From contig JBQTJP010000110.1 of the NCBI GenBank assembly GCA_052386995.1, forward strand, positions 30,481 through 94,480: a stretch of DNA of 64,000 nt. The letters run 5' to 3'. The notes below the pieces were generated by a model that worked only from the letters and a program-made list of their open reading frames with translations, searched no databases and was not told the DNA's origin. Source of the DNA: Armatimonadota bacterium. Lineage in GTDB: Bacteria; Sysuimicrobiota; Sysuimicrobiia; Sysuimicrobiales; Humicultoraceae. Below, piece by piece: positions 8,786 through 46,607 of the stretch (within the stretch, counting starts at the first letter, position 1; every line of letters begins with the position of its first letter). The position numbers and the translations under genes are program-made.

Positions 8786-9249
8786 CGCGAGCCCTCCGGG
8801 TGCAGCTCGACGGCAGCCGTCCCCTCACTCACGTGCCGTCCATCCAGCGTGACCGCCCACACCTCCAGGTTCACCACGCGAGCGCCGCCGGCAGAGGAGT
8901 CGCGCACGCGGCCTTCGCATCGGATCGTCTCGCCCACGTAAACCGGCGCGCCGTGGCGCACGGCCAATCGCTTCAACCAGCCGGCCGAACCGAGCCAGTC
9001 CGTGATCATCCGTGTCAGCAGCGCCGTGCGATGATGGCCGCTCTGAATGCAGTCGCGTAGCCCACGCATCTGTGCAAACGCGCGGTCGTAATGGAGCGCA
9101 AACCAGTTCTCCTGATAGGCGGCCCACCGCACGAAGTCGGCAAGTGTCAGCGGTCCCATCTCAACCGCCGGCAGTAGCGCGCCGGCCGCTATATCGAGTG
9201 GTGAAGACCCGATCGCGGCGTGTCCCTTCGCGGCGCCGGGGTCGGTCAT
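8782..9249 (-). CDS. MaoC-like (R)-specific enoyl-CoA hydratase, hotdog fold (C-terminal catalytic half-type)
   Basis: Hotdog-fold MaoC_dehydratas signature. It has 4-nt overlaps with the neighbouring GT4 and CoA-transferase genes. Confidence 0.7.
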   Translation of the reverse strand: MTDPGAAKGHAAIGSSPLDIAAGALLPAVEMGPLTLADFVRWAAYQENWFALHYDRAFAQMRGLRDCIQSGHHRTALLTRMITDWLGSAGWLKRLAVRHGAPVYVGETIRCEGRVRDSSAGGARVVNLEVWAVTLDGRHVSEGTAAVELHPEGSR

Positions 9250-10385
9250 GCCCCGGTCCGAGCCTGCTGGCGCGGGCCGGTGGCGATCACACCGGCGGCT
9301 TCGAGACGTCCGATCTCGTCCCGCGAGAATCCGGCCTCACGCAGGACCTCGGCGGTGTGTTGCGCCGGGCGCGGCGCGGGCGATGGGCGCCGCATCCACG
9401 GCACACGCAACACGGGTATCTCATCGTCGCCAATCCGCTGGAAGAACTCTCGGGACCGCAGCTGTGGATCGGTCAGCAGGTCATCGACACTGTGGACGGG
9501 GGCGATCGGAATGCCCCGTGCCTGAGCCAGCTCGGAGAGCTCGGCCTTGCTGAACCTCTGGGTCCATGCCCCGACGATCTCGAACACATCTTCCTGGCGC
9601 GCCAGGCGGGACTGTTCCTCCGTCAGCGCCTGGTCGCGCAGCCGCTCGTCACCGACGAGGTCGACCAGGGCGGCCCACATGCGCCGCTCGTTGGCGGAGA
9701 TCACCACATAGCCATCCCGACACGGCAGCGCGCCTGCCATGGCGATATGAGCGTGGCGGCTGCCGCGGCGCGTGACCACGCGTCCCGACAGCGCGGCCTC
9801 GTAGACCCCTTGCTGCATCACGGTCAGCAGGGCCTCGTGGCCGCTGACGTGCACCAGTCGCCCATCGCCGGTCTGCCGTGCCAGGCGCGCCCCCAGCACG
9901 CACGCCAGCGCCCCGTAGACCGCCGTAATCGCGTCGGCGAGCCCGCCTCCGACGAGCATCGGCGTCTGTCCCGGCTGCCCGGTAATCGACATGAGACCGC
10001 TGAGGGCATACCGGACGATGCCGGCAGTCCGGGCGATCTCACCACCCGCGGCCGGTGCGAAAGGTCGTAACGCGACCCACACGAGCCTCGGGTTGGCCGC
10101 GCGGCAGCGCGCGTAGAGCGACGGCGTGTCGTCGAACCGTGGTGCGATGCCGTCCATGACGACATCCGCGGCCGTGCACAGGCGCTCCAGAATCTCGCTC
10201 CCCCCGGCCCGCCGCAGGTCAACGACCACGCTGCGCGTGCCGGCGTTGAAGAACCGGTATGAAGGGTCGCGCGCGGCTCCGTCGGCGGCATCCAGGCGGA
10301 CCACATCGGCGCCGAGATCCGCCAGCAGTCTCCCCGCATAGACGGCGGACTCATCGGTCAGGTCCAGCACGCGCAGTACGCTCAT
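9246..10385 (-). CDS. Family III CoA-transferase (CaiB/BaiF family)
   Basis: N-terminal LRVLDLT...GADVV Rossmann motif of CoA_transf_3, about 380 aa. Confidence 0.8.
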   Translation of the reverse strand: MSVLRVLDLTDESAVYAGRLLADLGADVVRLDAADGAARDPSYRFFNAGTRSVVVDLRRAGGSEILERLCTAADVVMDGIAPRFDDTPSLYARCRAANPRLVWVALRPFAPAAGGEIARTAGIVRYALSGLMSITGQPGQTPMLVGGGLADAITAVYGALACVLGARLARQTGDGRLVHVSGHEALLTVMQQGVYEAALSGRVVTRRGSRHAHIAMAGALPCRDGYVVISANERRMWAALVDLVGDERLRDQALTEEQSRLARQEDVFEIVGAWTQRFSKAELSELAQARGIPIAPVHSVDDLLTDPQLRSREFFQRIGDDEIPVLRVPWMRRPSPAPRPAQHTAEVLREAGFSRDEIGRLEAAGVIATGPRQQARTGA

Positions 10386-10954
10386 GCGTGTGGCGGTGAC
10401 CCCATGAGAGAACGCGGACTCCCGCCGGCCACATCCGGCGCGACGATCCTGATCGTCGTCTGCCGGACCACGGCCAGCGGCTGTCCTGCCTGATCGGTAT
10501 AGCGGCGCTCCTCGGTGATGTACACCGCGGGGCCATCACGTCGTTCTTTCACGGCAATGTCAACGATCCTGAACCGCACCGTCACCCAATCGCCGATGCG
10601 AGGTGGGCGCATCCACTCGATCTCTGTGGCGACGTTGAGCCGGAGACGTTCACCCGGGACCTTGATCAGCGCGACCGGTCCGCCGACCGACGCTGCCCCG
10701 CCCTCGCGATCATCGTCGTGTGCGTTCATCCCCGGCGCGGGTCGCAGCACGTCCAGGATCATGGCCGGCGGCACCGGCGCCCCGGTCCGATCGTATGCCG
10801 CCTGCACGCCACCGGCAGGCGCCACCGGACTCTGCCCTCCAACGGCGTTGAGATATCGCCGCACGTCGCTCCACTCGATCGGCCCCGGGGCCCTGATGGG
10901 TCCCCACTCGTGCCCGATCCACTGTCGCAGAGCGTCTGCGGGGTCGGTCGTCAT
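10382..10954 (-). CDS. MaoC-like hotdog protein (N-terminal/FAS1-like dehydratase half; partner of 8782-9249)
   Basis: Hotdog-like protein of about 190 aa that pairs with the downstream MaoC gene. Split MaoC heterodimers of this kind occur in ChsH1/ChsH2-type hydratases. Confidence 0.55.
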   Translation of the reverse strand: MTTDPADALRQWIGHEWGPIRAPGPIEWSDVRRYLNAVGGQSPVAPAGGVQAAYDRTGAPVPPAMILDVLRPAPGMNAHDDDREGGAASVGGPVALIKVPGERLRLNVATEIEWMRPPRIGDWVTVRFRIVDIAVKERRDGPAVYITEERRYTDQAGQPLAVVRQTTIRIVAPDVAGGSPRSLMGSPPHA

Positions 10955-10957
10955 CTG

Positions 10958-12175
10958 TCAGACCAGCACACCCTCGGCGTGAAGCCGGGTAATCTCGGCG
11001 TCTTCCAGAGCGAGCACCTCGCGAAGCACCGCGTCGGTGTGCTCACCCAGGCGTGGACCGGCTCGATCTGGCCAGACCGTGTCCGCATCGAGGTGAATGG
11101 GGTTGGGCAGCGCCGGCATCGCGCCGATAACGGGATGGCGCATCGTGCGGACCGATGGGGCGAAAACCGGCAGATCGGCCAGCGCCTCGACATTCGTGCG
11201 CACCGCCGCGGCGGGCGCGCCCGCGGCCTGCAGCTGAGCCTCGACATCGCGCGACGCCCGCTGCCTCGTCCAGCCCTCGAGCCGGGAATCGATCTCCTCG
11301 AGCGCCTGCAGCCGGCCCTCGGCCGTCGCGTAGCGCGGATTCCGCAACGTTTCATCGCCGACCGCGCCGACCAGCGCCTCCCACTCGCCGCCGCTGCCGA
11401 TGCTGATCACGCACCAGGCATCCTCGCCGCGACACCGGTAGCAGCCCTGCGGGACGCGGTCCGCTGCGCGGTTTCCCGGGCGCGCGCCGGGCGCGTGGCG
11501 TGTGCCGTTCGATGGCCCATTCAGCATCAGATGTCCGAGCGGAAGGGCGTTCGCCTCGTACTGACTGACATCGATCCAGCATCCCTGGCCCGTGCGGTCG
11601 CGCCGCTCGAGCGCCGACACGAGCACGAGCGCCGCGTGCAGTCCGGCCATGAAGTCAGCCCACGAGTTCGAGACGCCTGTGGGCGGCTCGCCGGGGCTGC
11701 CGGTTGTCAGCATGAGCCCCGAGAGCGCCTGGATCACGGCGTTGAAGCTCGCCCATCCGCTCCGCGGACCACCGTAGCCGAGCCCTGACATGCTCACGTA
11801 GATCAGGCGCGGGTTGATCGCCAGCAGCTGGTCGTGCCCTAACCCCAGCCGATCCATGACGCCTGCACTGAAGTTCTCGGTCACGGCGTCGCAACGCGCC
11901 GCCAGCGCCCGCGCGACATCCGCGCCGTGCGGGTGCTTCAAGTTGATGGCCACCGACCGCTTCTGACGGTTCAAGCCGGCAAAAAGCGCGCTGCCCTCCG
12001 GGTCACGGGGACCGTCGGGCCGAAACGGCCCCAATCGACGCCCGGCCTCGACGGCGGTCGCGCTCTCGACCTTGATGACGTCGGCGCCGAACTCTGCGAG
12101 CAGGCCCGTCGCGAATGGCCCGGTCACGACGTGACCAAAGTCCAGGATGCGAACGCCCTGCAACGGCGTGGTCAT
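10958..12175 (-). CDS. Family III CoA-transferase (CaiB/BaiF family), second copy
   Basis: The start is MTTPLQGVRILDFGHVVTGPF (ATGA overlap with the next gene). The long N-terminal extension shown in the ORF track is spurious. Confidence 0.8.
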   Translation of the reverse strand: MTTPLQGVRILDFGHVVTGPFATGLLAEFGADVIKVESATAVEAGRRLGPFRPDGPRDPEGSALFAGLNRQKRSVAINLKHPHGADVARALAARCDAVTENFSAGVMDRLGLGHDQLLAINPRLIYVSMSGLGYGGPRSGWASFNAVIQALSGLMLTTGSPGEPPTGVSNSWADFMAGLHAALVLVSALERRDRTGQGCWIDVSQYEANALPLGHLMLNGPSNGTRHAPGARPGNRAADRVPQGCYRCRGEDAWCVISIGSGGEWEALVGAVGDETLRNPRYATAEGRLQALEEIDSRLEGWTRQRASRDVEAQLQAAGAPAAAVRTNVEALADLPVFAPSVRTMRHPVIGAMPALPNPIHLDADTVWPDRAGPRLGEHTDAVLREVLALEDAEITRLHAEGVLV

Positions 12176-12648
12176 CGCCTGCGCGCTCCCGCGGTCGTGG
12201 CTTTCTTCCCCGCGCGCGGATCGGGGGCGACTGCGCTGGGTACCGGTTCGAAGCTCGGCAGTGTGTACCGCCTCCCAATCGGGCGGAAGACGACGCGCAC
12301 GGGCATCCCGATGAGCACCGCATCGGTCCGGCAGTTCACGACCGTGCTGACCATCATCGGGCCTTCGTGCAGCTCGATGGCGGCATACACATACGGCGTG
12401 GGAAACGCCGGGTCGTGCTGGGCCCGCTGCACCGTGAAGGCGAATACCTTTCCCCGCCCGCTGGCCTGTGTCCATTTCAGGTTCTCAAGGTACGGAGCGT
12501 TGGGGTGCTCGCGGCAGCCCGCCAGCGGCCAGCGCCAGGCTCCGCACACGTCGCAACATAGCAGCAGAAACTCGTTCCGCCGCAGGCCCTCCCAAAATGG
12601 CCGCATTTCCTCGGTGGGATTCGGGTCCGGCCCTTTCCAGTCGCTCAT
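12172..12648 (-). CDS. DUF35 Zn-ribbon/OB-fold protein (thiolase/aldolase partner subunit)
   Basis: CCDVCG...C Zn-ribbon followed by an OB-fold. The start is MSDWKGP (ATGA overlap with the thiolase stop). Confidence 0.65.
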   Translation of the reverse strand: MSDWKGPDPNPTEEMRPFWEGLRRNEFLLLCCDVCGAWRWPLAGCREHPNAPYLENLKWTQASGRGKVFAFTVQRAQHDPAFPTPYVYAAIELHEGPMMVSTVVNCRTDAVLIGMPVRVVFRPIGRRYTLPSFEPVPSAVAPDPRAGKKATTAGARRR

Positions 12649-13853
12649 GCCGCCCGCCGGTGCGGTTGCGTCGTCAACACAATCGTGGAGTGGATCGAGC
12701 ACATCTGCCCGGACAGCACTTCGGCGCCGTGTCCGGAGACCAGCGCGACTTCGGCGTCGGCCACCTGTCGCGTACCGCCCTCGCCCCGCAACTGAATGAC
12801 CGCCTCGGCAAAGCCGGTCAGGTTGCCCAGGTGGTGGGAGGACAAGAGTCCACCGCCGGTGTTCACGGGGATGTCGCCGCCGGGCGCGGTCCGCATCTCC
12901 GCTGCGAAGGCGCCGCCCTCGCTCTTTCCGCACCAGCCATAGTCTTCCAGCTGAAGAATGACCTCGCCCGTGAAGCAGTCGTACAACTGGGCGAGATCCA
13001 CGTCGGCCGTGGTAATGCCGGCCTGCCGGAATGCGGTCTCGCGCGCGCCGTGCACCGCGAGCGTCGTGTAATTCGTCTTGTCCCACCACAACTCGGCCAT
13101 CTGCTCGCCAAATCCGATGCCGCCCATATACACCGGCGGCCGGCGCAGGTCGCGCGCGCGCTCCTCCGTGGTGACGATGAACGCGGTGCCACCGTCACTC
13201 TGGAGGCAAATGTCGAACAGGCGGTACGGCCAGACGATCACCGGCGATCGCTGGTGATCCTCCAGCGTCAACGGCCGGTCATGCAGGTAGGCGCGTGGAT
13301 TCAGGTTCGCCCACCGCCGCGTGGCGACGGCCACTGCACCGAGCTGCTCGCTGGTGGTGCCGAATTCATGCATGTGGCGGCTGGCCAGGAGGCCGTGATA
13401 GGTGGGCGCGTTCGCGCCGAAGAGCGCGGCCCATGAGTTCTGCTTGGCGGCATAGGACTGGCCGCGCTTTCCCGACCCCTGCTTTGCCGCCTGACTGCGA
13501 CTCCAGTCGTCGCGCGCGCCCGAGCACAGCACGTAGTCGGCGATGCCATGATCGAGCAGCCCGGTCGCCGCGAGCAACGCGTGGCCCGCGTACTCGCCGC
13601 CCCGACCCACGTTCTCCAGGTACAGGTTGACCGGCAGGTTCAGCACCCGGGCGAACGAGTCGTGATGCCGAGGACGCACACCGCCTCCCGCATCGCTCAG
13701 CATCTGAACCGCCGCGCCGATGTCGTGCGCCGCCAGACCCGCATCTTCCATGGCGAGTCGCGCGGCCTCCACTTCGAGCATCAGGACCGACCGGCCGGGC
13801 AGATGCCCGACCTCGGTGACGCCGAGTCCGACAATCGCGTAGCGTCCTCTCAT
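12645..13853 (-). CDS. SCP-x / lipid-transfer-protein-type thiolase-like enzyme (thiolase or retro-aldolase, Ltp2-like)
   Basis: Thiolase fold. DUF35-associated subfamily. Confidence 0.75.
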   Translation of the reverse strand: MRGRYAIVGLGVTEVGHLPGRSVLMLEVEAARLAMEDAGLAAHDIGAAVQMLSDAGGGVRPRHHDSFARVLNLPVNLYLENVGRGGEYAGHALLAATGLLDHGIADYVLCSGARDDWSRSQAAKQGSGKRGQSYAAKQNSWAALFGANAPTYHGLLASRHMHEFGTTSEQLGAVAVATRRWANLNPRAYLHDRPLTLEDHQRSPVIVWPYRLFDICLQSDGGTAFIVTTEERARDLRRPPVYMGGIGFGEQMAELWWDKTNYTTLAVHGARETAFRQAGITTADVDLAQLYDCFTGEVILQLEDYGWCGKSEGGAFAAEMRTAPGGDIPVNTGGGLLSSHHLGNLTGFAEAVIQLRGEGGTRQVADAEVALVSGHGAEVLSGQMCSIHSTIVLTTQPHRRAA

Positions 13854-13874
13854 GATGACCCAGCCGCTGATGAC

Positions 13875-14783
13875 CTAGCCGCGGATGAAGGACTCGGGTG
13901 GCCTGGGGCCCCAGAGGTTGACCGCGCCGACACGTCCCCTGACGGGATCCCAGACCCCGGCCTCACGCATACCCTCGCCGTCGAAACGCACCGACTCTGC
14001 GAGAAGCTCCCACCGGATATTCCACGGATCCACGAAATACACGAACAGGCTGTTGCCGGGCCCGTGCCGCCCGGGGCCGTACTCGACCTGCACGCCAAGG
14101 GTGCCGAAGTGGTCGAGCATCCGGAGCATGTCGCTCCAGGACGCGATCTCGAGCGCGACGTGATGCAGACCCGGGGTCGAGGACCGTACCAGGGCGACGG
14201 TGGTATGCTCGTCTCCACAGCGCAGCCAGTAGAACTCGTCGGGGATGCGATCCGACAGGCGGAGGTCGAGGTGATCCTCCAGCCACCGTGCGGACGCGCC
14301 CACGTGTGGGCTGCGGAGATTGATGTGCGACAACCTCAGCAGATTGGCCGGTGAAGCTTCCGCCGCGGGCCGCGCAACAGGCGCGTCGGGAATCACCAGC
14401 TCCAGATAGAGTCCGTCGTCGTCCTGGAGCCGGACGGCCGGTCCGTGGACGGACTCCATGGCCGCGGGCCCCTCGACCGTCAGGCCGCGGCTACGCAACA
14501 TCGCAGCGGCAACATCCAGGGCGCCTTCATCGCGCACCGCCAGGGCATAGTGCGCCAAACCGAAAGGCTCGCCGGGGTACAGCACGAGTTCGTGGTGCGG
14601 CACCAGTTGCGCGCCGGCCGGTAGCGTGCTCATGAGCACCGCGCCCGTCGACGCGTCCCGACCGGTGATGCCGAGTCCCAGCACGCGGCGATAGTATTCG
14701 GCCGCGGCGTCCGGATCCGACACCCGGAACGTGACGTGATCCAGGTGCGTCACGGGGAGACGCTGGCCGGTGCGACCCGTCAT
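13875..14783 (-). CDS. Two-domain VOC (glyoxalase/extradiol dioxygenase-like) protein
   Basis: Two VOC modules and a C23O-like C-terminal motif (GPGRHGPGNSLFVYFVDPWNIRWEL). The start MTGRTGQ overlaps the CE4 stop (ATGA). Confidence 0.65.
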   Translation of the reverse strand: MTGRTGQRLPVTHLDHVTFRVSDPDAAAEYYRRVLGLGITGRDASTGAVLMSTLPAGAQLVPHHELVLYPGEPFGLAHYALAVRDEGALDVAAAMLRSRGLTVEGPAAMESVHGPAVRLQDDDGLYLELVIPDAPVARPAAEASPANLLRLSHINLRSPHVGASARWLEDHLDLRLSDRIPDEFYWLRCGDEHTTVALVRSSTPGLHHVALEIASWSDMLRMLDHFGTLGVQVEYGPGRHGPGNSLFVYFVDPWNIRWELLAESVRFDGEGMREAGVWDPVRGRVGAVNLWGPRPPESFIRG

Positions 14784-15664
14784 CGAGATCCTGGCTCCAG
14801 CCGGGCGGCGGGAGTCGCGGACGACCCGTCGGCCGTTCGAGTTCCGAGCTGATGCATCCGGGCGCGGAATAGTCGGAACCCATCGGTACGCAGCACGGGA
14901 TAGCGCCACAGCCGGTGAGGGCGGAGGGCGGCATAGGGATTCTTGCCAGGCCCTCCGAGCGCCGCGGTCGCGTAGCGTGGGGCCACCATCGGCTCAACCA
15001 CCGGCGACCAGCGACCCCAGGGGTATGCGAAGTGCCTCGGCGTCACCCCAAGGCGCCGCTGGATCATACGATCGCACTCGTCGAGTTCGGCAGCTGCCTG
15101 ATCCGGCGTCGTCTGCGACAGATCCACGTGGGTGTGCGTGTGGCTGCCGATCGCCACGAGTCCCGACCGCGCCATCTCGCCCGCCTGCTCCCAGGTGAGG
15201 GGCAACGGCCGGCGTTCCGGCGCGAGATTGCCGAAAGCACCGAAGTCGAACGGCCGCCGGGTCTCGACGTACATCGCGGGCAGATAGACGGTCGCGGGCA
15301 GTCCGTACCGACGCAGTACGGGATACGCCACGTCATACGTCTCGCCGTAGCCGTCGTCGAACGTAATGGCCACGATATCCGATGCGGCCTGACGGCCCGG
15401 AGACGCGCAGACCTCGGCCACATCGTCCAGCGAGACAACCCGGCAATGACGATGAAGACAGCGCATCTGCGCTTCGAAGGCGCGCTCCGTGACATCCACG
15501 TCGCTGCGCGTGTTGCCGCCGACGCGGTGGTACAGCAGCACCACGACGCCCGGCTCCGGGTGCGGCCGGACGGCCTGCAGCGGCAGCGCCAGCCACCGCC
15601 CGAGGCTGCGCGCCGTGCGTCCTGCCCCCATGATCCAGTCGGGCAACTCCATAGCGGCCGTCAA
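14780..15664 (-). CDS. Polysaccharide deacetylase (CE4 / NodB homology)
   Basis: TFDDGY and HTHTH motifs. Confidence 0.8.
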   Translation of the reverse strand: MTAAMELPDWIMGAGRTARSLGRWLALPLQAVRPHPEPGVVVLLYHRVGGNTRSDVDVTERAFEAQMRCLHRHCRVVSLDDVAEVCASPGRQAASDIVAITFDDGYGETYDVAYPVLRRYGLPATVYLPAMYVETRRPFDFGAFGNLAPERRPLPLTWEQAGEMARSGLVAIGSHTHTHVDLSQTTPDQAAAELDECDRMIQRRLGVTPRHFAYPWGRWSPVVEPMVAPRYATAALGGPGKNPYAALRPHRLWRYPVLRTDGFRLFRARMHQLGTRTADGSSATPAARLEPGSR

Positions 15665-25480: not shown

Positions 25481-27964
25481 CTAGAACCTTCTCACTCGAA
25501 GTACACGGCTGGCATTGACAGTCCCATTGCTGCCGATCCCCAGAGCCCAGAAGTACGCCCGGCGCGGCGGGTGGCTGCCCATGCTGAAGCTCATCGAGGC
25601 GAACCCGCGGACCGTTCGCACCCGCTCGAGTCTCTGGTTGGCCTGGTAGAACTCGACCTCGGCTGCGTTGGTCTCCACGGTCAAGGTAATCGTCCCGGTG
25701 GCCACGAGGTCATCGTTCGGCGCCGACCACCGCACGCGCGGCGTCTGTGGGCGGGTCCCCGTGCCATCGTTGTCCCTGCGGCGGGCGTTGTACTCAGAGT
25801 CCACAACGCCCGCCGCTCCATCCTCTCTGTGGAAGAGCGTAAAGTCTCCTGGGCGCGAGAGCCCGCGCTGCTGGCGGAATCGCAGCTGGCTGCCCGGTGG
25901 AGGTGCATCGGCCCCGCCGAACCAGATGCCGCGGCTCGGCGAGAACTGTACGCGCGCGAATTGCACCACCGATCGCTCACCCGGGCCATTACGGTCCTGC
26001 GAGTGCCGCACGTTGAAGGCCGTGACGTTCCGGACGACACCGTCCTCATAGACCGAATCGAAGCTTGACGCCGCAACGTACGACTGGATCTCAACACCAG
26101 TCGCCCCGACGCCCATGCCGTCGGCGAGGAACCCCGTGAATCCCCACAGCGCGGGAACTGACCCGGCATGGCCACTCGTCCAGTGCGCGATCTGCGCATG
26201 TCGGTTGCCCAGCGATCTAAGCCCGTGCAGCCAGTAGGCCGTGATGTAGGCTCCCCACCCGAGGCCGACTTCATTCCTCCACGTCAGGAGGTCGACGATA
26301 CGCTGAGTGGGCGTGAGATTCTGCCATGAGTGAAATCCCATGGCCGTATTGGAATTCGCTTCCGCCCGAAACACGTGGGGCGTTTCTCCGTAGTCCGTCC
26401 CGCCCTCAGGCCAGTGAATTCCCGACGACCGCGCGGAAGGGAATCCGTCCGCGGCGCTGCTTCCGGCCGCGACTGCCCCGACGATCGCGCAGTTGCGGCT
26501 TCCGTCCATCCAGATGCCGGCGTTGCGGGCATTCCGGCTGTTCCCCCATCGCATGACCAGCACGCGATCGAGCCAGCAATCGTCCGCCGCGTGATACTGG
26601 TTGTGGTTCGGCCCGACCGCATTGACGCAGAAGGACTCGAACCGGCACTCCAGCATCACCGGGGTTGTGCTTTCTATATCGTCTTGCCGCGCATTGCGGA
26701 CGGAATGCCGGGAGTGGTCGTAGACCACGAGGTCCTCCACGGTGATGCCGAAGGAGCCGTGGATATGCAGACCGTCCCCGGGCCCGCCGGCCAGGACAAC
26801 GCGGCGGAGGTAACTGCCCCGCGAACCGTCAAGCTGCCTGTGACTGTGCCAGGCGTACCGGCCCATGGGCTCCCGTGTGGGCGCCGGCGAGAAGTTGTAG
26901 ACTGCCAGGTTCTCGACATAGTACCTCGCGCGGTCCATAAACATCACATGCGGCCGGTGATTCGGGTCGCCCGCCTCGAAGATGACATTGCTCGTCAGGT
27001 TGGCCACCTTGGCCGTCAACCGCTCCGTCCAGGAGTCGCCCCACGCGTCCTGCCAGCCGACTGAGAGCGCCTCATGTGTGTACCGCAAGCCCGAATCCAG
27101 CTGGAACCGGCCGTGACCGAGGTCGGCGGTGATCCGGCGCACTTCGTCCTGGTGATCGTTCTCGTTGGCCCGCAGATTCGACGGTCCCACGACCACTCGA
27201 TCGCCCACCCTCCAGCCGGCCGCAAAAGCGGGATCGACGGCAATCTCAGCGCTCCCGGCTCGTGCTGTCTCGGTCAGCGGGGACCAGGTGTCCCGATAGA
27301 CGCCGGCTACCCACACTTGAGCGCTGTCTATGGCCCACAGGCCCACATCGGTCGCGAGGGGCGCCATCACGTTGCCACCAACATACTGGCCCTCGTTCAG
27401 GAACCACCGGATGGAGGCCGGAACCGTGACTCGATCGCTCGCGCGGCCGTAGTCCAGCACCCCCCGGACAACGAGGTTGCCATAGAGCGTGAGCCGCGAG
27501 GCCCTGCCACGGCTCGCGCGGAGCGTACCGTCGACCGTGACTGTCCGGGCTTCCGCGGCTTCCGTGTCGACTTCGATCACTCGCCCCGCCGGAATGACGA
27601 CATCGTTGTCCCGTGTGGGGACGCGGCCGGACGGCCACGTCGCGGGGTCGCTCCAGCGAAGCCCTCCGGATGATGGAGGAGGGGTTGGCGGGATCGGCGT
27701 GCGCGATGGGACGGGCGCGGGCGGTGTTGGTGCGCCCGGGGTCGGGGCGGGTGTTGGCGCAGGCGTCGGCTGCGACGGCGGCGGTGTGGGCTGTCCTGGC
27801 GTGGGCTGACCTGGAGCCGGCGTAGGTGGCGCAGGTGGTGAAGTGGGCTGCGGTGTCGGTCGCGGTTTTCCACCAGGCGGCGGCTGGGCAGAAATCAGAT
27901 TCGGAGAGGGGAGCGCGAGGGTGAGGGCGACGAGGAGTGAGAGGGAGAGAAGACGCAGACGCAC
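25481..27964 (-). CDS. Secreted G8-domain / right-handed beta-helix protein (CEMIP/TMEM2-like). A glycan depolymerase or modifying enzyme is likely.
   Basis: GTG start, a signal peptide, a ~70-aa Pro/Thr-rich linker and a G8-like N-terminal segment (RWSDPATWPSGRVPTRDNDVVIPAGRVIEVD...TVDGTL). A long beta-helix-like region follows. Confidence 0.6.
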   Translation of the reverse strand: MRLRLLSLSLLVALTLALPSPNLISAQPPPGGKPRPTPQPTSPPAPPTPAPGQPTPGQPTPPPSQPTPAPTPAPTPGAPTPPAPVPSRTPIPPTPPPSSGGLRWSDPATWPSGRVPTRDNDVVIPAGRVIEVDTEAAEARTVTVDGTLRASRGRASRLTLYGNLVVRGVLDYGRASDRVTVPASIRWFLNEGQYVGGNVMAPLATDVGLWAIDSAQVWVAGVYRDTWSPLTETARAGSAEIAVDPAFAAGWRVGDRVVVGPSNLRANENDHQDEVRRITADLGHGRFQLDSGLRYTHEALSVGWQDAWGDSWTERLTAKVANLTSNVIFEAGDPNHRPHVMFMDRARYYVENLAVYNFSPAPTREPMGRYAWHSHRQLDGSRGSYLRRVVLAGGPGDGLHIHGSFGITVEDLVVYDHSRHSVRNARQDDIESTTPVMLECRFESFCVNAVGPNHNQYHAADDCWLDRVLVMRWGNSRNARNAGIWMDGSRNCAIVGAVAAGSSAADGFPSARSSGIHWPEGGTDYGETPHVFRAEANSNTAMGFHSWQNLTPTQRIVDLLTWRNEVGLGWGAYITAYWLHGLRSLGNRHAQIAHWTSGHAGSVPALWGFTGFLADGMGVGATGVEIQSYVAASSFDSVYEDGVVRNVTAFNVRHSQDRNGPGERSVVQFARVQFSPSRGIWFGGADAPPPGSQLRFRQQRGLSRPGDFTLFHREDGAAGVVDSEYNARRRDNDGTGTRPQTPRVRWSAPNDDLVATGTITLTVETNAAEVEFYQANQRLERVRTVRGFASMSFSMGSHPPRRAYFWALGIGSNGTVNASRVLRVRRF
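27664..27883 (-). repeat. Low-complexity Pro/Thr-rich linker coding repeat inside the G8 gene
   Basis: Reiterated (PTPAP/PTPGQ)n codons. Several spurious antisense ORFs arise here. Confidence 0.5.
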
Positions 27965-28029
27965 GGATCACCTCCGATTTATCCAGAAGCTCTCCGTCGG
28001 TCGGGGAACGCTGCAGGACCGTCCTTCTC

Positions 28030-28135
28030 TTCGGCAGCCCGGCTGTCTTGGAAGTATCGTCCAAGACCCGTAGCTTTGCGTCCCCGAATCACTTCGGGTT
28101 TGCCCTTGTCGGAGAGTTCCGGTGAATGGGATCTC
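28030..28135 (-). ncRNA. Candidate c-di-GMP-I (GEMM) riboswitch in the 5' leader of the G8/beta-helix gene
   Basis: The minus-strand RNA reads ...GGGCAAACCCGAAGUGAUUCGGGGACGCAAAGCUACGGGUCUUGGACGAUACUUCCAAGAC... It carries the conserved GGCAAAC element, a P2 hairpin capped by a GNRA tetraloop (CCCGAA-GUGA-UUCGGG), the invariant GGACGCAAAGC element and a P3 hairpin (GUCUUGG...CCAAGAC). An SD (GGAGG) and a GTG start follow about 60 nt downstream. Confidence 0.5.
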
Positions 28136-28188
28136 TGAAGTTCCCCATACCCGACTCCCAAAATCCTTAGACCTCTGGAAACCCATCC

Positions 28189-28980
28189 TCAATCAACCCC
28201 TCTTTCGTGCACGACACAAATCCGCGCGGGGCCCAGTCTATTCAGAAGAAGATGAATGCGGTGATCCCTAAAGTACTCGTCTGCCGCCCGCCTCGCCCCT
28301 TGCCAGTACCCGTAGTCGTCGATGATGAGAACGCCGCCGCGGCTGATTCTCGGGAACAAGTGCTGGAGTTCGTGCTTCGTTGATGCATACCAGTCGGTGT
28401 CCAGCCGGAGCAACGCAATCGAGTCCGGGGCTTGTCGTGGAATCGTCTCCTCGACAAGACCCGCGACGCAGTGAATTCTGGCCTCGTCATACCCTGTCGA
28501 TCGCATGACGCTGCGCACTTTGTCGATCGAGACCGCAGCCCAGGTCGCCTCTTCATCGGCGGGGTCCGACTCTGCCAGGACCTGGCCGGCCGTTGCCCCG
28601 TCCCACCTTAAGTCGTGGGGGCTCGGGGGCGGCATACCTTCAAAGGTATCAAACAGATACAGATCGCGGCTCGCATCATGCTCCAGAAGCAACGTGTACG
28701 CAGCGGCCATCATGCTCCCACCGCGCCAGACACCGCATTCAACAATCGCCCCGGGTACGTGTGCACGAGCCACGTATCTCACCGCGTGGCACAGCGCAAA
28801 GGCTTGCTCCGGCGTGGACTTGGTGTAAGGACCAACACGCTCAATTACCTCATTGAACTCCGGGTCGAAGTCCGGAGGAGAGCGATAATATGGAACAACG
28901 TCAAGGCCGAACTGACGGGCAACGAGCCGAACACCCGAGATGACGAAACGAGATATGCGGCCTGTTCCCGTGGCGATCAT
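28189..28980 (-). CDS. TylF/MycF-family (macrocin-type) sugar O-methyltransferase
   Basis: TylF-family architecture: GVWRGGS, FDTFEGMP and LLRLDTDWYAST motifs. Confidence 0.75.
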   Translation of the reverse strand: MIATGTGRISRFVISGVRLVARQFGLDVVPYYRSPPDFDPEFNEVIERVGPYTKSTPEQAFALCHAVRYVARAHVPGAIVECGVWRGGSMMAAAYTLLLEHDASRDLYLFDTFEGMPPPSPHDLRWDGATAGQVLAESDPADEEATWAAVSIDKVRSVMRSTGYDEARIHCVAGLVEETIPRQAPDSIALLRLDTDWYASTKHELQHLFPRISRGGVLIIDDYGYWQGARRAADEYFRDHRIHLLLNRLGPARICVVHERGVD

Positions 28981-34519: not shown

Positions 34520-35038
34520 TCAGGCGACGAGTTCTACGTCTGTAACGTCCATCTCCACAGGCGTGAGACAGCCCATCAACTGGAGTAGCACGCGCACCCG
34601 CTCACCGCGGCTCGCCGGCCGCTCCAGAATCCCCTGCAAACCGACAAACGGTCCGTGCACCACGTGCACCGCCGAGCCGACCTTCAGGCGCCATCCGGCC
34701 TCCAGTGGGATGATCTCCGCATCCCCGCAGCGTTCGCGGAGCATCCCGATGGCCTCGGCCGGAACAGGCGTCGGAACATCGTCGGTCGCCACGATCCGCT
34801 TGACGCCTGGCGCCCACTTGACCGCGTGCCAGGATTCCGGCTCCAACCGCATCTGGACAAACAGATATGAAGGAAACAACGGCTCGACAACCTTCACGCG
34901 GCGGGATCGCCGCCGGCGAAGGTCCGAAACCTTTGGCAGAAAGACCGAGAGCCCCGAGCGTGCGCGCAACCAGCCGTGGACACGGTCTTCCTGCCGCGGC
35001 TTGGTTTGCACGGCATACCAGGACAGTTCATCATCCAT
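34520..35038 (-). CDS. NusG-paralog transcription antiterminator (RfaH/UpxY/LoaP-like specialised NusG)
   Basis: NGN domain (WYAVQTKPRQE...) and a KOW motif (GSAVHVVHGPFVGLQGIL); 172 aa. Confidence 0.75.
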   Translation of the reverse strand: MDDELSWYAVQTKPRQEDRVHGWLRARSGLSVFLPKVSDLRRRRSRRVKVVEPLFPSYLFVQMRLEPESWHAVKWAPGVKRIVATDDVPTPVPAEAIGMLRERCGDAEIIPLEAGWRLKVGSAVHVVHGPFVGLQGILERPASRGERVRVLLQLMGCLTPVEMDVTDVELVA

Positions 35039-41405: not shown

Positions 41406-41611
41406 GGCCAGGGTACCTCGAGGGCCGCGGCGACCACCGCGGTGACGAGAAGAAGAACGATCTTGGCCCTGATCGCCCGCCGGTCATCGGCGAGCAACGC
41501 GCAGATTTGTATCCCCATTTCTGCGGGTGACCGTGTGGCCATCGGACCCAGCCGGCCGGCTGCGCAGCGCCGATAAGCGGTGTGGACGGTGAACGGTTCG
41601 GTTCGGATCAT
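41402..41611 (-). CDS. Small hypothetical protein with a C-terminal hydrophobic helix
   Basis: 69-aa ORF whose start overlaps the lexA stop (4 nt) and whose stop overlaps the RNase H-like start. It could be non-coding. Confidence 0.25.
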   Translation of the reverse strand: MIRTEPFTVHTAYRRCAAGRLGPMATRSPAEMGIQICALLADDRRAIRAKIVLLLVTAVVAAALEVPWP

Positions 41612-42234
41612 GACACACCGAGAGGGTAGCGTCGCAGCAATCCCACGACTTTCCCCAGGATCTCAAACTCGCCGGTGATCGGCCCGTACGCGGGGCTCTC
41701 CGCACGGAGAACCGGGCAATCCTCAGACATGTCGAGGCGCTTCACGGTCGCCTCGTCGCCAAGCAGCGCAACGACCAGTTCGCCGGGCGCAGCGGTGGGC
41801 TGACAGCGGACGATGACGAGGTCCCCGTCAAAGATTCCTGCGCCGACCATGCTGTCCCCCCGAACCGTCAGCAAGAAGCACTCCTCACTCCAGCCGACAA
41901 AACGCCGCGGGATTGGAATCATCTCTTCAACGTGTTCCTGGGCTAACACGGGCACTCCCGCGGACACGCGCCCCACCAGGGGCAGTGAGACGATCTCTGT
42001 ACCCTCATGGAATATATCCCGCCCGGTGATCTCCAAAACCCGCATCCTGTCGCCATCCCGACGCAGGTACCCCTTGCGCGCCAGAGCCGTGAGGTGCTGG
42101 TGGACAGTCGACGGAGATCGCATGCCCAAGGCGTGCCCTATCTCCCGGACAGACGGAACGATGCCAGAGCGCCGAATGCTGGAAGCGATGTGCTGCAGGA
42201 TCTCTTGCTGGCGATCAGTCAGCGGCTGAGCCAT
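41608..42234 (-). CDS. lexA: LexA repressor
   Basis: N-terminal wHTH, Ala-Gly cleavage site (VSAGVP) and S24 peptidase Ser/Lys (GDSM...KRL). Confidence 0.9.
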   Translation of the reverse strand: MAQPLTDRQQEILQHIASSIRRSGIVPSVREIGHALGMRSPSTVHQHLTALARKGYLRRDGDRMRVLEITGRDIFHEGTEIVSLPLVGRVSAGVPVLAQEHVEEMIPIPRRFVGWSEECFLLTVRGDSMVGAGIFDGDLVIVRCQPTAAPGELVVALLGDEATVKRLDMSEDCPVLRAESPAYGPITGEFEILGKVVGLLRRYPLGVS

Positions 42235-42261
42235 CGGTTCACCCCTCAGACGCTATAATAG

Positions 42262-42275
42262 CGAACATATGTACG
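42262..42275. promoter_or_regulatory. LexA operator (Cheo-box type) 1
   Basis: CGAACATATGTACG, one mismatch from the CGAAC-N4-GTTCG palindrome, 28 nt upstream of the lexA start. It overlaps a TATAAT-like -10. Confidence 0.7.
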
Positions 42276-42296
42276 TCATGGCAAGGTTATTGTATA

Positions 42297-42310
42297 CGAA
42301 CATATGTACG
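42297..42310. promoter_or_regulatory. LexA operator (Cheo-box type) 2
   Basis: Identical 14-mer CGAACATATGTACG, 35 nt from box 1. Confidence 0.7.
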
Positions 42311-42401
42311 CTATAAGGTGCCTGTACGACGGTACGCGTGATCTCGGGCCCGGACGCCTGTTTTCGCGCCCGCACGGGGCCGCGCGGCGTGTCTTGGGGG
42401 T

Positions 42402-43349
42402 TCAGCGGGTCTGCGACAGAAGTGCCGCGAGAAGACTCGGGTCGAGGTTGCCGCCGCTGATAACCGCGAGAGCAGGGCGTTGGAGGACGAGGCCGCCCAG
42501 GAGCGCCGCTACCGCGATCGCCCCGGATGGCTCGACCACCAGGTGGGCCTCGACACACAGGCGACGAACGGCATCGAGGATCCACTCATCATCCACGCTC
42601 ACGAACGCGTCGACGTATTGGGACGTAGCGTCCCATGTCAGCAGACCAGGCTGCTGCCCCCTGAGGCCGTCGGCGATGGTCGCGACCGACGGGACGGTCA
42701 CCCGTGTGCCCGCCGCACGCGAGGCCGCGAAGCGGGCCACGGATTGCGGCTCGGCCCCGATGACCTGGATCGACGGCCTTAGCGCCTTGATCGCGAGCGC
42801 GATCCCGGAGATCAATCCACCTCCCCCGGTCGGCACAACGACGGCGGAGACCTCCGGGCACTGATCGAGGATTTCCAATCCGCAGGTGCCCTGGCCTGCG
42901 ATCACCAGGGGATCATCGAATGACGGGACCAGGTGCAGCCCGCGCTCTTTCGCAAGCCGCGCGGCCAGGGCTGAGCGCTCCGGCATTGTCGTGCCGCACC
43001 GGATCATCTCCGCGCCGTAGCGAGCGATCCCCGCCTGCTTCAACTGCGTCACCGTCTCCGGGACCACGATGACGGCCGGCACGCCCACGCGCGAGGCCAT
43101 GTAGGCTACGGCCTGCCCGTGATTCCCTGACGATGCCGCAACGACGCCTTTGATCCCCGCGCCCATCGCCCGGAGATGATTGGAGGCACCACGCACCTTG
43201 AACGACCCGGTGGGCTGAAGGCTCTCGAGCTTCAGCCACAGGTCCGAGGCCTGATCCCAGGGGTGGATTGGAGTGCGCCGGACATCAGACGCGACGCGCG
43301 CCGCCGCAGCTCTAACCTCTGCAATCGTCGGAAGGATCCCGGCGCTCAC
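42402..43349 (-). CDS. PLP-dependent threonine/serine dehydratase (catabolic type, no ACT domain)
   Basis: PS00165-like SFKVRGA lysine motif and a glycine-rich loop (GGGGLISG). A GTG start is assumed near the gcvPB stop. Confidence 0.7.
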
Positions 43350-44824
43350 CCGCCGCGCCCGGGTGATCCGGGCGGCCGCCAGCGCAGATCTGGGCGCCGC
43401 GCGGCCGCGACCTCGTCGAGCCTGCTGACAACCGTTCGATGGGGGGCCGTGCGCACGGTCTCGGGATCTGAGGCGCACTCTTCGGCCACACGCATCATCG
43501 CGTCCGCAAACGCGTCGAGCGTCTGCCGGCTTTCGGTCTCTGTCGGCTCGATCATGATCGCCTCATCGACGATGAGCGGGAAGTAGATCGTCGGCGCGTG
43601 GAACCCGTAGTCCAGCAGGCGCTTGGCGATGTCCAGCGTCCGCACGCCGTGCCGTGTCTTCTGCCGCCGGCCCGACAGCACGAACTCGTGCATACACACC
43701 CGGTCGTAGGGGAGATCGAAGTACGGGCGGAGGCGCGCCAGCAGGTAGTTTGCGTTGAGCACCGCCGCCTCGGAGACCTGGCGCAGCAGCGGTCCGTAGG
43801 CTCGCAGATACGCGTACGCGCGCACGAGCACGCCGAAGTTGCCCGCAAACGCGCGCACGCGCCCGATGCTCTTCGGCCGATCGTGATCGAGACGGAATCC
43901 TTCGCCATCGCGTTCGACGATGGGGACCGGCAGGTACGGCTCCAGCCGCCGCTTGACGGCGACCGGTCCGGCCCCGGGGCCACCGCCGCCGTGCGGAGTG
44001 CTGAACGTCTTGTGCACATTCATGTGCATGACGTCGAATCCCTGATCGCCGGGCCGTGTGACGCCGAGCACCGCGTTGAAATTTGCGCCGTCGAGGTAGA
44101 GCAGCGCCCCACACCCATGGACGATCTCCGCCACTTCGGTGATACCTTCCTCGAACAGGCCAAGCGTGTTGGGATTGGTGAGCATCAAGGCCGCGACCGA
44201 CTCATCGGCCGCGCGGCGGAGCGCGGCGTGATCGATATTCCCCCGCGCGTCGCTGGGAACCGTCACCACCGTATAGCCGCACATCGCGGCGGAGGCCGGG
44301 TTGGTCCCGTGCGCCGAGTCGGGCACGATGACGCGTGTGCGGCGCTCGCCGCGGTCGTCGTGAAACGCCCGAATCATCATCAACGCCGTCAGCTCGCCGT
44401 GCGCGCCGGCGGCGGGCTGGAAGGTCACGCGGTCCATGCCACTGATCTCGCAGAGCATCTGCTCGAGATGCCACAGGAGCTCCAGCGCCCCCTGCGCCTG
44501 GGCGTCCGGCGTGTTCGGGTGCAGGCGCGCGAATCCCGGCAGCCGCGCCGCGTCTTCGTTGACCTTCGGATTGTATTTCATCGTGCACGAACCCAGGGGA
44601 TAGAATCCCGTGTCGATCGCGTAGTTGCGGTGCGACAGGCGCGTGTAGTGCCGGACGAGATCGGGTTCGCTCACCTCTGGTAGGGCCGCCGGATCGCGAC
44701 GCAGGTGGTCGGCGCCGACGATGTCCTCCAGCGGCACTTCGGGAACACCGGCATCGGGCAGCGAGGCGGCAATGCGCCCGGAGACGCTGTGCTCGAAGAT
44801 CAGAGGAAAGTTGGGGCCGGTCAC
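43346..44824 (-). CDS. gcvPB: Glycine dehydrogenase (decarboxylating) subunit 2
   Basis: PLP-lysine region ([16 protein letters not shown]); split P-protein. Confidence 0.9.
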
Positions 44825-46218
44825 TGCCGCGTGACCCGCACGACCGACCCGATCACGGCGGTAACGGCGTCCACCAGGGCGTCGATCTGCGCGGGGGTGC
44901 GCGCTTCCGTGACGCAGACCAGCCAGCCGTCACTCAAATTTGGATACCACCGGTGAAGCGCGAGCCCGCCGAGAATGCCGTGGTCGAGAAGACGCGCGTT
45001 CAACTCGTCGGGAGGCATCGGCACCCGCAGAACGAACTCGTTGAAGATCGGCCCATCAAAGGCGGCGCGAATCCCCGGCACGGCGCAGAGTCGTTGCCGC
45101 GCATAGTGCGCGCGGCGTGCGTTCACTTCCGCGACCCGACGCATACCCGTACGCCCCAGCGCCGCCATGTAGACGGACGCGGCCAGCGCGTTGAGCGCCT
45201 CATTGGTACAGATGTTGCTGGTCGCCTTCTCCCGCCGGATGTGTTGCTCGCGCGTCTGCAGGGTTAACACAAAGCCGCGCCGTCCATCGCGATCGGTCGT
45301 CACGCCAACTAGCCGTCCCGGCATGCGGCGAACGAACGCCTCGCGCGTAGCCAGCATTCCGAGGTAGGGGCCACCGAAGTTGAGATAGTTGCCCAGGGGC
45401 TGGCCTTCGCCGGCGATGATGTCGGCGCCGTAGGCGCCCGGCGGCTTCAGCAGCCCGAGACTGATAGGATCGGCGATCCCCACGACCAGCAGCGCGCCGG
45501 CGTCGTGCGCCGCCTCCGCGAGGGCCGGCCCGTCTTCTATGCAGCCGAAGACCGTGGGCGACTGCACCATCACCGCCGCGGTGTTGGGCCCAAGCGTTGT
45601 GCGGAGCCCGTCGAGCGGAGTGCGGCCGTCCCGATGCGGGACTTCGATGACGCGCACCCCTAGATGCCGCGTGTAGGTCCGCAGCACCTCGCGGTAGTGT
45701 GGGTGGACGGCGGTCGACACCACGACCTCGTCGCGCCTGGTGAGATCGCGGGCCATGACCGCGGCCTCACCGAAGGCGCTCGCACCGTCATACATGGAGG
45801 CGTTCGCCACATCCATGGCCGTGAGCTCGCACAGCATGGACTGGTACTCGTAGGCGGCCTGGAGCTCGCCCTGCATGATCTCGGCCTGGTACGGCGTGTA
45901 CGCCGTGTAGAACTCCGCGCGCCCGGCCAGGTGCCAGACGACGCTGGGAATGTGATGGTCGTAGGCGCCGGCCCCAAGAAAACTCACGAGCCGGTCGGCA
46001 TGCCCGTTGCGCTCGGAGAGCGCGCGGAGGTGCGCCAGCAGATCAGCGTCGGTGAGCGCCGGCGGCAGCGCGAGCGGCCGCCGCAGGCGCACGGCGGCCG
46101 GGATCTCAGCCAGCAGGTCTTCGACCGACGACCGCCCGATGGCCCGCAGCATCTCGTCGCGCTCGGCAGCCGTGAGCGGCAGATACTTGTGCGGGTGCCA
46201 GGTGGACGACGAACTCAT
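44821..46218 (-). CDS. gcvPA: Glycine dehydrogenase (decarboxylating) subunit 1
   Basis: GcvP N-terminal half motifs. The start is [14 protein letters not shown]. Confidence 0.9.
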
Positions 46219-46604
46219 GCGCCCGCGGCTCCCACGAGTTTGACATACGCGTCGGCCGAGAGGAGTTGATCCCACTCCGAGGCATGCGCCGCGGGCTCGA
46301 CGACGATCATCCAGGCGGCGCCGTGGGGATCCTGATTGATGAGCTCGGGATTGTCGGACAGCGCCGTATTCGCATCGACCACTCGACCGGAGACCGGCGC
46401 GAACAGGTCGTTGGCGGCTTTGACCGACTCAATCACGCCGAATGGCTGCATCGCGCGCACCTCGGCCCCCACTTGGGGAAGCTCGATGAAGACGACGTCG
46501 CTCAGCCGGTCGGCGGCGAACTTTGTGATGCCGATGCGAATCCGGCCATCCTCCTTCTTGGCCCATTCGTGCTCCTGCGTATACCGGCGGTCGTCTGGAT
46601 ACAT
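46215..46604 (-). CDS. gcvH: Glycine cleavage system H protein
   Basis: Lipoyl-lysine motif (ESVKAANDLFAPVSG). Confidence 0.9.
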   Translation of the reverse strand: MYPDDRRYTQEHEWAKKEDGRIRIGITKFAADRLSDVVFIELPQVGAEVRAMQPFGVIESVKAANDLFAPVSGRVVDANTALSDNPELINQDPHGAAWMIVVEPAAHASEWDQLLSADAYVKLVGAAGA

Positions 46605-46607
46605 GCG

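Follow-up and report, generated by a model that had tools for sequence, protein, structure and literature searches.

A c-di-GMP-I-class aptamer with a putative translational OFF platform in the leader of a secreted G8/β-helix, depolymerase-like gene within an Armatimonadota polysaccharide locus

In the Vc2 aptamer of Vibrio cholerae, which belongs to the class I (GEMM-I) riboswitches for cyclic di-GMP (c-di-GMP), the ligand is contacted by G20, A47 and C92 (PMC4744006, PMC5888326), and a Watson-Crick pair between C44 and G83 has been described as universally conserved (PMC4744006). A G20A mutant of Vc2 binds cyclic GMP-AMP (cGAMP; PMC7288161). On the side of the genes, glycoside hydrolases and lyases encoded within exopolysaccharide operons are a known theme, with PelA and PslG as examples (PMC4928890). 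Here we analyzed a 64-kb stretch from the genome of an uncultured Armatimonadota bacterium (GCA_052386995.1, contig JBQTJP010000110.1, positions 30,481 to 94,480, 64,000 nucleotides; hereafter the window, with coordinates counted from its first letter), in which the leader of a gene for a secreted G8/β-helix, depolymerase-like protein carries an RNA element that is almost certainly a genuine aptamer of the c-di-GMP-I class. On balance, this element probably functions as a class I c-di-GMP riboswitch that acts by a translational OFF mechanism.

The leader is an intergenic segment of 224 nt on the minus strand, running from the stop codon of a TylF-type methyltransferase gene (28980..28189, minus strand) at 28189 to a GTG start codon at 27964, and its GC content of 0.52–0.54 is low against the 0.62–0.79 of the flanking genes. 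Both properties had been reported in an earlier interpretation made from the letters of the DNA (the sequence-only reading), which had also proposed a c-di-GMP-I riboswitch here. When the whole window was scanned with Rfam 15 at the gathering thresholds, the sole riboswitch match was located at 28113..28029 on the minus strand (73.2 bits, E 2e-15), in the c-di-GMP-I clan CL00126. The top-scoring family was RF03167 (c-di-GMP-I-GGC; gathering score 59), and two lower-scoring families of the clan, hidden by clan competition, also reached at least their own gathering scores. A permissive rescan of 27900..28300 returned the same match together with one chance-level microRNA match, the window aptamer scored 108.5 bits with a custom covariance model, and orthologous leaders scored 52–62 bits with RF01051 (gathering score 35). 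All of the GEMM-I elements named in the sequence-only reading are present on the minus strand, namely GGGCAAACC, the P2 hairpin CCCGAA-GUGA-UUCGGG, GGACGCAAAGC and the P3 hairpin GUCUUGG/CCAAGAC, and the alignment above the gathering score places the conserved elements at their structural positions. The closure of P1, which it had left for folding to settle, is provided by UCUCCG (28115..28110), pairing with CG (28033..28032) and GAGA (28029..28026) around an AA bulge. Its expectation of a match to RF01051 held at the level of the clan, whereas the best-scoring family turned out to be RF03167; likewise, the aptamer does lie in the proposed span of 28030–28135, but with its extended P1 it occupies 28121..28021 and reaches slightly further 3′. 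The observation is real and far beyond chance.

The fold of this aptamer is maintained by compensatory changes among relatives, and its association with the gene is conserved. The regulated protein has about 28 clear orthologues (41–88% identity), all from uncultured bacteria; those genomes that carry names are Armatimonadota, including CSP1-3 and Candidatus Fervidifonticultor. Proteins of the window are matched exactly by those of an Armatimonadota metagenome-assembled genome. We scanned 94 fetched loci (about 600 kb; designated here by L numbers) with Rfam and the custom covariance model. An aptamer of the c-di-GMP-I class directly precedes the G8 gene, whether orthologue or paralogue, on the same strand in L001, L002, L007–L012, L014, L015, L018, L025, L028, L083, L087–L089 and L091–L094; for orthologous G8 genes, the count of related loci is 19. 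In the closest relatives, L087 and L088, the gene order is kept, and in the more distant L089 and L093 the gene still lies among polysaccharide genes. P1, P2 and P3 comprise 27 pairs, which across 15 distinct aptamers are 98.8% paired, and 12 of them have changed on both sides; none of 500 shuffles reached the observed values, and partners slid by 1–3 columns were paired to at most 47%. The positions equivalent to A47 and C92 are A and C, respectively, in 15 of 15 aptamers, the nucleotides of the interhelical C44–G83 pair are present as C 28080 and G 28043 and are invariant in the same set, and every P1 5′ strand contains CUCC or CCUCC.

The class of the element was assigned from the positions that contact the ligand. 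The consensus sequences of the clan models read ..aGGCAAAc..GACGCAAAgC..GcUgCCgaa for RF01051, ..AGGCAAACC..GACGCGAAgC..GcUGCcgaag for RF03167 and ..aaUgCAAAc..GaCGcAAAgC..GuUGUCaAag for RF03168; from these three consensuses we infer that the variants, reportedly described by Weinberg et al. 2017, are named after the nucleotides at Vc2 positions 20, 47 and 92. In the window the three positions are G 28104, A 28077 and C 28034, which is the canonical G/A/C signature. The alignment to RF03167 sets ACGC-G-AAGC of the model against ACGC-A-AAGC of the window, and this is the lone mismatch in the most conserved block. Because the contacts read G/A/C and the defining G of RF03167 is absent, the element is filed under canonical c-di-GMP-I, and c-di-GMP is very probably its ligand; with A at 28077, the class given in the sequence-only reading is better than the GGC label of Rfam. 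That the element is a true c-di-GMP-I-GGC variant, sensing a ligand other than c-di-GMP, seems to us extremely unlikely: RF03167 does score best for the window (73.2 against a gathering score of 59) and for several relatives, but A stands in place of the defining G in the window and in all 15 relatives, and the high score is better explained by an architecture held in common, with a GYRA tetraloop and a P3 that lacks the 11-nt receptor. The RF01051 consensus includes this receptor (CUAAG...uAuG), which is deleted in window-type RNAs, and the common architecture is the likely cause of RF03167 outscoring RF01051. Membership in the GGC variant was thus rejected with A at position 47, and cGAMP specificity of the GEMM-Ib kind was rejected with G, not A, at position 20 (28104). 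Clan competition labels the aptamers of L002, L007, L008, L014, L015, L018 and L028, together with that of the window, as c-di-GMP-I-GGC, and all of them have A, so that the label is a systematic annotation trap in the clade of the window. The P2 of the window carries a GUGA tetraloop, and its P3 has no counterpart of the 11-nt receptor in the RF01051 consensus; this receptor-less GYRA version is reportedly the ‘type 2’ GEMM architecture of Weinberg and colleagues (2007) and is said to be an accepted subtype.

Between the aptamer and the gene, an expression platform of three parts (elements A, B and C) is common to 17 leaders. Element A consists of the 5′ strand of P1 and a short 5′ flank; element B, followed by an anti-Shine-Dalgarno (anti-SD) segment, is the alternative partner of A and at the same time the 5′ half of a sequestor hairpin; the 3′ half of that hairpin is element C, which contains the Shine-Dalgarno (SD) sequence GGAGG (27975..27971) and the GTG start codon (27964..27962). 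The consensus of element B is GC(G/A)UCGGAGGG, followed by the CUCC-like anti-SD, and in 16 of the 17 leaders it sits 31–46 nt before the start codon. In a structure-free MAFFT alignment the B:C helix is 83% paired and slid controls no more than 51%, with changes on both sides in 5 pairs. The A:B helix is 85% paired, compared with at most 54%, and 4 pairs have changed on both sides, with compensatory examples in L083 (CUUCCG:CGGAAG) and L018 (AUCC:GGAU). In an unbiased duplex search, no downstream site scored better than element B as a partner of the P1 5′ region in 16 of 17 leaders.

The predicted energies and accessibilities of these helices were then compared. Over the 17 leaders the A:B duplex amounts to −16 to −25 kcal/mol, as against −6 to −7 kcal/mol for P1 (window −18.7 versus −6.3), and the sequestor hairpin, formed by B and the anti-SD with C, ranges from −17 to −30 kcal/mol (window −18.8 to −22.1). 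When the aptamer was forced, the SD and the start codon were paired in nearly all leaders, with unpaired probabilities of 0.00 and 0.30 in the window. When A:B was forced, the corresponding values in the window were 0.40 and 0.57, and the start codon reached 0.5–0.97 in most relatives. The aptamer-forced and A:B-forced ensembles of the window lie 3.6 kcal/mol apart, a difference that does not include ligand-binding energy. In prefix folding of the window leader the A:B helix forms at 131–150 nt, ahead of the synthesis of the SD. An intrinsic terminator was rejected as the platform: terminator-like sites were found on neither strand of 27800..28400, and in relatives the hairpin just 3′ of the aptamer has no U-tract.

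We propose a translational OFF switch in which c-di-GMP represses the regulated gene, a direction that we hold with moderate confidence. For element A (CGGAACUCUCCG), the P1 3′ strand and element B would be mutually exclusive partners. Without ligand, element A would pair with ACGGAGAG-CUUCUG and tie up the anti-SD, the SD and the GTG start codon would be accessible, and the enzyme would be translated. With c-di-GMP bound, P1 would be locked and element B freed, and the freed element B would fold over the SD and the start codon into a hairpin of about −19 to −22 kcal/mol, repressing translation of this one gene. A matrix-cutting enzyme would in this way be made at low c-di-GMP, during dispersal or remodelling, and be off at high c-di-GMP, when matrix is built. 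The idea of a matrix-editing switch had been put forward in the sequence-only reading with no direction attached; the platform fits the gene-specific control that it envisaged, and the added prediction is that the enzyme is made when c-di-GMP is low. Since the control would be translational, it should act on any transcript that bears the leader, whether this arises by readthrough from upstream or starts at a promoter-like motif described below, and occlusion of the SD would not stop transcription from reaching the glycosyltransferase and flippase genes downstream. No terminator was found after the upstream gene, and the leader lies in the middle of a long same-strand array; amid such an array a translational platform would make sense, as one gene could be switched without terminating the transcription of its neighbours. 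Two designs found elsewhere in the gene family point the same way and give independent support to OFF logic within it. In L025 the SD (GAGGAG) lies within the P1 3′ strand, so that P1 formation hides the SD and OFF is the only possible logic, and in L020–L024 a c-di-AMP aptamer comes with a terminator-like hairpin.

Several observations weigh against this proposal. Ligand binding and the direction of control are both deduced from sequence, and the window's own RF01051 score is masked by clan competition. Unconstrained folding of the window leader always gives the sequestor hairpin (SD unpaired 0.00–0.01), whether P1 is allowed or not, and the translated state would therefore need co-transcriptional (kinetic) capture of element B, or energies beyond the nearest-neighbour model; a kinetic nature of the switch is presumed. 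Plain minimum-free-energy folding, a candidate approach that was rejected, did not reproduce the aptamer and predicted the sequestor hairpin in all conditions, and for this reason it cannot alone decide the direction of control. Their high sequence conservation leaves both platform helices with modest covariation. Even with A:B forced the start codon stays paired in L015, L002 and L018, and element A of L083 has its best partner at a different site. Finally, the orthologues in L006, L016, L017, L019 and L027, for which the upstream DNA is intact, have no riboswitch by all Rfam families or by our own model, and riboswitch control of the G8 family is therefore frequent but not universal.

Two other accounts of the leader were weighed against translational repression by c-di-GMP. 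The P1 5′ strand could in its free state pair with the SD through CUCC and block translation, so that c-di-GMP, by locking P1, would free the SD and turn the gene on. The sequences allow for this, as CUCCGA is complementary to UCGGAG of the SD in the window (−10.9 kcal/mol) and every P1 5′ strand has CUCC or CCUCC; moreover, c-di-GMP-I riboswitches of the ON type exist, for example Vc1 upstream of gbpA (PMC4744006), and a polysaccharide-processing enzyme could sensibly be made at high c-di-GMP. We nevertheless consider an ON switch unlikely, given that ligand binding would leave the conserved local sequestor hairpin in place over the SD and the start codon, that the P1 5′ region prefers element B over the SD in 16 of 17 leaders, that the extended UCGGAGG context of the SD is limited to the closest clade of the window, and that an SD inside P1, as in L025, is compatible with OFF only. 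The second account would place the control mainly on transcription or RNA stability, by Rho-dependent termination within the untranslated 2.5-kb gene or by ligand-dependent decay, and it would imply polarity on the downstream glycosyltransferase and flippase genes in place of gene-specific control. A long untranslated reading frame is a classical substrate for Rho, the absence of an intrinsic terminator from 27800..28400 fits such a scheme, and the NusG paralogue in the locus (34520..35038) suggests that termination and antitermination matter there. What is conserved in the platform, however, is the occlusion of the SD and the start codon, and any effect of Rho would therefore be secondary to translational repression; this account appears to us very unlikely, though a secondary polarity that depends on Rho may occur, and the NusG paralogue may bear on it. 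Translational repression by c-di-GMP is thus the reading that we retain below. The features of the leader and of the gene are collected in Table 1.

Table 1. Coordinates of the aptamer, the platform elements and associated features in the window.
Feature	Coordinates	Strand	Remarks
c-di-GMP-I-class aptamer with extended P1	28021..28121	−	Rfam core 28113..28029, own covariance model, covariation in 15 homologous leaders
P1 5′ strand UCUCCG	28110..28115	−	holds anti-SD-like CUCC; in element A; pairs with P1 3′ strand or element B
G equivalent to Vc2 G20 (ligand contact)	28104	−	directly 5′ of the GC that pairs with GC of ACGC
P2 hairpin CCCGAA-GUGA-UUCGGG, GNRA tetraloop	28083..28098	−	compensatory changes in 5 of 6 pairs among relatives
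A equivalent to Vc2 A47	28077	−	G in the GGC variant family; A in all 15 relatives
P3 hairpin without 11-nt GAAA tetraloop receptor	28036..28075	−	13 pairs, 99% paired, 5 compensatory
C equivalent to Vc2 C92 (ligand contact)	28034	−	invariant in 15 of 15 aligned aptamers
P1 3′ strand CG-AA-GAGA	28026..28033	−	pairs with P1 5′ strand
Element A, CGGAACUCUCCG	28121..28110	−	P1 5′ strand and a few 5′ flanking bases
Element B and anti-SD, ACGGAGAG-CUUCUGG	27983..27997	−	alternative partner of A; 5′ half of sequestor hairpin
Element C, UCGGAGGUGAUCCGU	27963..27977	−	SD and start codon; 3′ half of sequestor hairpin
Promoter-like motif GTCTA-N15-GGGTA	28148..28172	−	17 nt after TylF stop, about 33 nt before P1
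Regulated gene, 827 aa	25481..27964	−	signal peptide, Pro/Thr-rich linker, G8, right-handed β-helix, C-terminal β domain

The product of the regulated gene is best read as a putative secreted polysaccharide-cleaving enzyme, because of its signal peptide, its G8 domain and the matches of its predicted fold to TMEM2 and to capsule depolymerases. The N-terminal sequence MRLRLLSLSLLVALTLALPSPNLISA/Q looks like a Sec signal peptide, and the Pro/Thr-rich linker comes after it. Pfam G8 (PF10162) matches with 30.6 bits against a cutoff of 22.9, and CEMIP_beta-hel reaches 20.1 bits, which is below its cutoff of 27.3. An AlphaFold2 model built from 28 sequences has a mean predicted local distance difference test (pLDDT) score of 83.5 and a predicted TM-score (pTM) of 0.84, with disorder limited to residues 1–98. 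In a Foldseek search of the PDB with this model, the best match was the TMEM2 ectodomain (8c6i; E 3e-15, TM-score 0.44), followed by a K1 capsule lyase from Klebsiella and several capsule depolymerases and tailspikes of phages; the protein is about 10–13% identical to its structural matches, and the TM-scores are 0.24–0.44. The proposal of a secreted, CEMIP/TMEM2-like glycanase made in the sequence-only reading is thereby borne out at the level of the predicted fold. Within residues 1–98 (27964–27670, minus strand), the signal peptide is followed by a Pro/Thr/Ala-rich, low-complexity linker of ~70 residues with pLDDT values below 50, and the length of the linker varies among orthologues, which accounts for their size range of 690–900 aa and for inconsistent start-codon calls in public data. 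The exact sequence of the G8 protein that begins with the GTG at 27964 is absent from the protein collection, and the public annotation may therefore use another start.

The gene and its leader lie within a run of same-strand polysaccharide genes extending from 38405 down to 1102, about 37 kb, in agreement with the size given in the sequence-only reading. Genes in this locus encode a Wza-like exporter (outermost, ending at 38405), a weak Wzz-like protein, a tyrosine-kinase-like ATPase, a UDP-sugar dehydrogenase, methyltransferases, GNAT acetyltransferases, deacetylases, five GT4 glycosyltransferases, two Wzx-type flippases, a DegT aminotransferase, a dehydratase and an initiating sugar transferase. 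Between the tyrosine-kinase-like gene and that of the UDP-sugar dehydrogenase lies the gene of the NusG paralogue mentioned above (PF02357, 75 bits; 34520..35038, minus strand), and L087 has one too; this protein may be an operon-specific antiterminator. At 9246..14909 (minus strand) there are two genes of the coenzyme A-transferase family III, a thiolase-like gene and a glyoxalase-family gene with no obvious tie to polysaccharide synthesis; their role may be to modify the glycan with acyl groups, or the stretch may be an insertion that has nothing to do with it. Beyond the polysaccharide locus, at 41608–47729 (minus strand), LexA, a pyridoxal phosphate-dependent enzyme and the glycine-cleavage genes gcvPA, gcvPB and gcvT are encoded; no match to a glycine riboswitch in the 64-kb window was at or above the gathering score. 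A scan of the long open reading frames of the window for GGDEF and HD-GYP motifs gave nothing useful.

Upstream of the aptamer, the promoter-like motif of Table 1 occurs once in the 64-kb window. A motif family GTCTA-N15/16-(T)GGG(C/T)A, with small variants, precedes the aptamer in 18 of 18 leaders examined, at 33–56 nt before P1, and 19 of the 23 exact motif matches in the 94 loci are located directly upstream of an aptamer. A scan of the leader with the sigma-70 consensus found no promoter and did not recognise the motif at 28148..28172. GTCTA-N15/16-GGGYA may be a dedicated promoter.

Other members of the G8 gene family are preceded by riboswitches of other kinds. In L020–L024 a c-di-AMP riboswitch (RF00379, 74.9 bits; L020 848–991) lies directly upstream of G8 orthologues of about 43% identity, and the aptamer is followed by a GC-rich, terminator-like hairpin (GGCCCAG...CUGGGCC) with a T-rich tail, the gene of L020 starting at about 1077–1086. 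The aptamer of L025 (2698–2783) has A at the position of G20 (AAUA-GC), a signature linked to recognition of 3′3′-cGAMP. L083, on a 577-kb contig, holds a distant G8 paralogue (29% identity), and the aptamer upstream of it (2505–2580) carries C where Vc2 has G20, giving C/A/C; in Rfam this aptamer falls under the UAU variant (68.1 bits, gathering score 65.9), though it has neither U. The kinds seen in the family are the canonical c-di-GMP-I aptamer, in the window and some 16 further distinct leaders, the A20 type (L025), the C20/A47/C92 type (L083) and the c-di-AMP type (L020–L024). Tentatively, the G8/β-helix family could be a hub for the swapping of cyclic-dinucleotide riboswitches, all wired such that the nucleotide signal turns the enzyme off, an idea that we regard as possible but rather doubtful. 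If it were true, one conserved output for dispersal or matrix editing, the enzyme, would have been connected to different second messengers in different lineages, and the three-element platform of the window would serve to switch a single gene within a long polysaccharide operon and spare its neighbours any polar effect.

The proposed riboswitch would assign a direct c-di-GMP input to an uncharacterised bacterial family of G8/TMEM2-like β-helix proteins in the Armatimonadota, an almost unstudied phylum, and this input would link the G8 enzyme functionally to the exopolysaccharide locus around it. OFF logic would offer a simple, testable model of matrix remodelling or dispersal, in which the enzyme is made as c-di-GMP falls. 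For annotation there is a caution, as clan competition in Rfam labels G/A/C aptamers ‘GGC’ and a C/A/C aptamer ‘UAU’. One gene family behind different cyclic-dinucleotide riboswitches would be a natural comparative system for changes of ligand specificity in GEMM-I RNAs, and this variety across the G8 family is the most interesting lead, though it concerns loci other than the window.

Compared with Vc2 and Vc1 (RF01051), the window element has the same three-helix aptamer, the contacts equivalent to G20, A47 and C92, the nucleotides of the C44–G83 pair and a GNRA tetraloop on P2, and it likewise lies on the coding strand in a 5′ untranslated region; it differs in that its P2 loop is GUGA (GYRA) and its P3 is without the 11-nt GAAA-tetraloop receptor. 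RF03167 is the highest-scoring model, and the window is nearly identical to its consensus in P3 and in the junction J3/1 (GACAGCCGGGCUGCCGAAG), but at the A47 position the window and all relatives have A in place of the defining G. The GEMM-Ib riboswitches of Geobacter for c-AMP-GMP (3′3′-cGAMP) are of the same fold and clan; these have A at position 20, whereas the window has G at 28104. As with PelA and PslG, the secreted enzyme-like protein of the window is encoded amid a locus for polysaccharide biosynthesis and export, and we know of no riboswitch control for either PelA or PslG. With TMEM2/CEMIP, capsule lyases and phage tailspikes the protein has in common the G8 domain and right-handed β-helix of its predicted fold, but it represents a sequence family distinct from the β-helix depolymerases, with about 10–13% identity to its structural matches. 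In the searchable literature, neither Armatimonadota nor G8 domains turned up in connection with c-di-GMP riboswitches. The window element adds a member to a riboswitch class that is already known and does not represent a new kind; what goes beyond the sequence-only reading is the misleading GGC label, the tight and wide association with a G8/TMEM2-like family in Armatimonadota-type genomes, the platform that predicts an OFF switch, and the differing riboswitch elements within the family.

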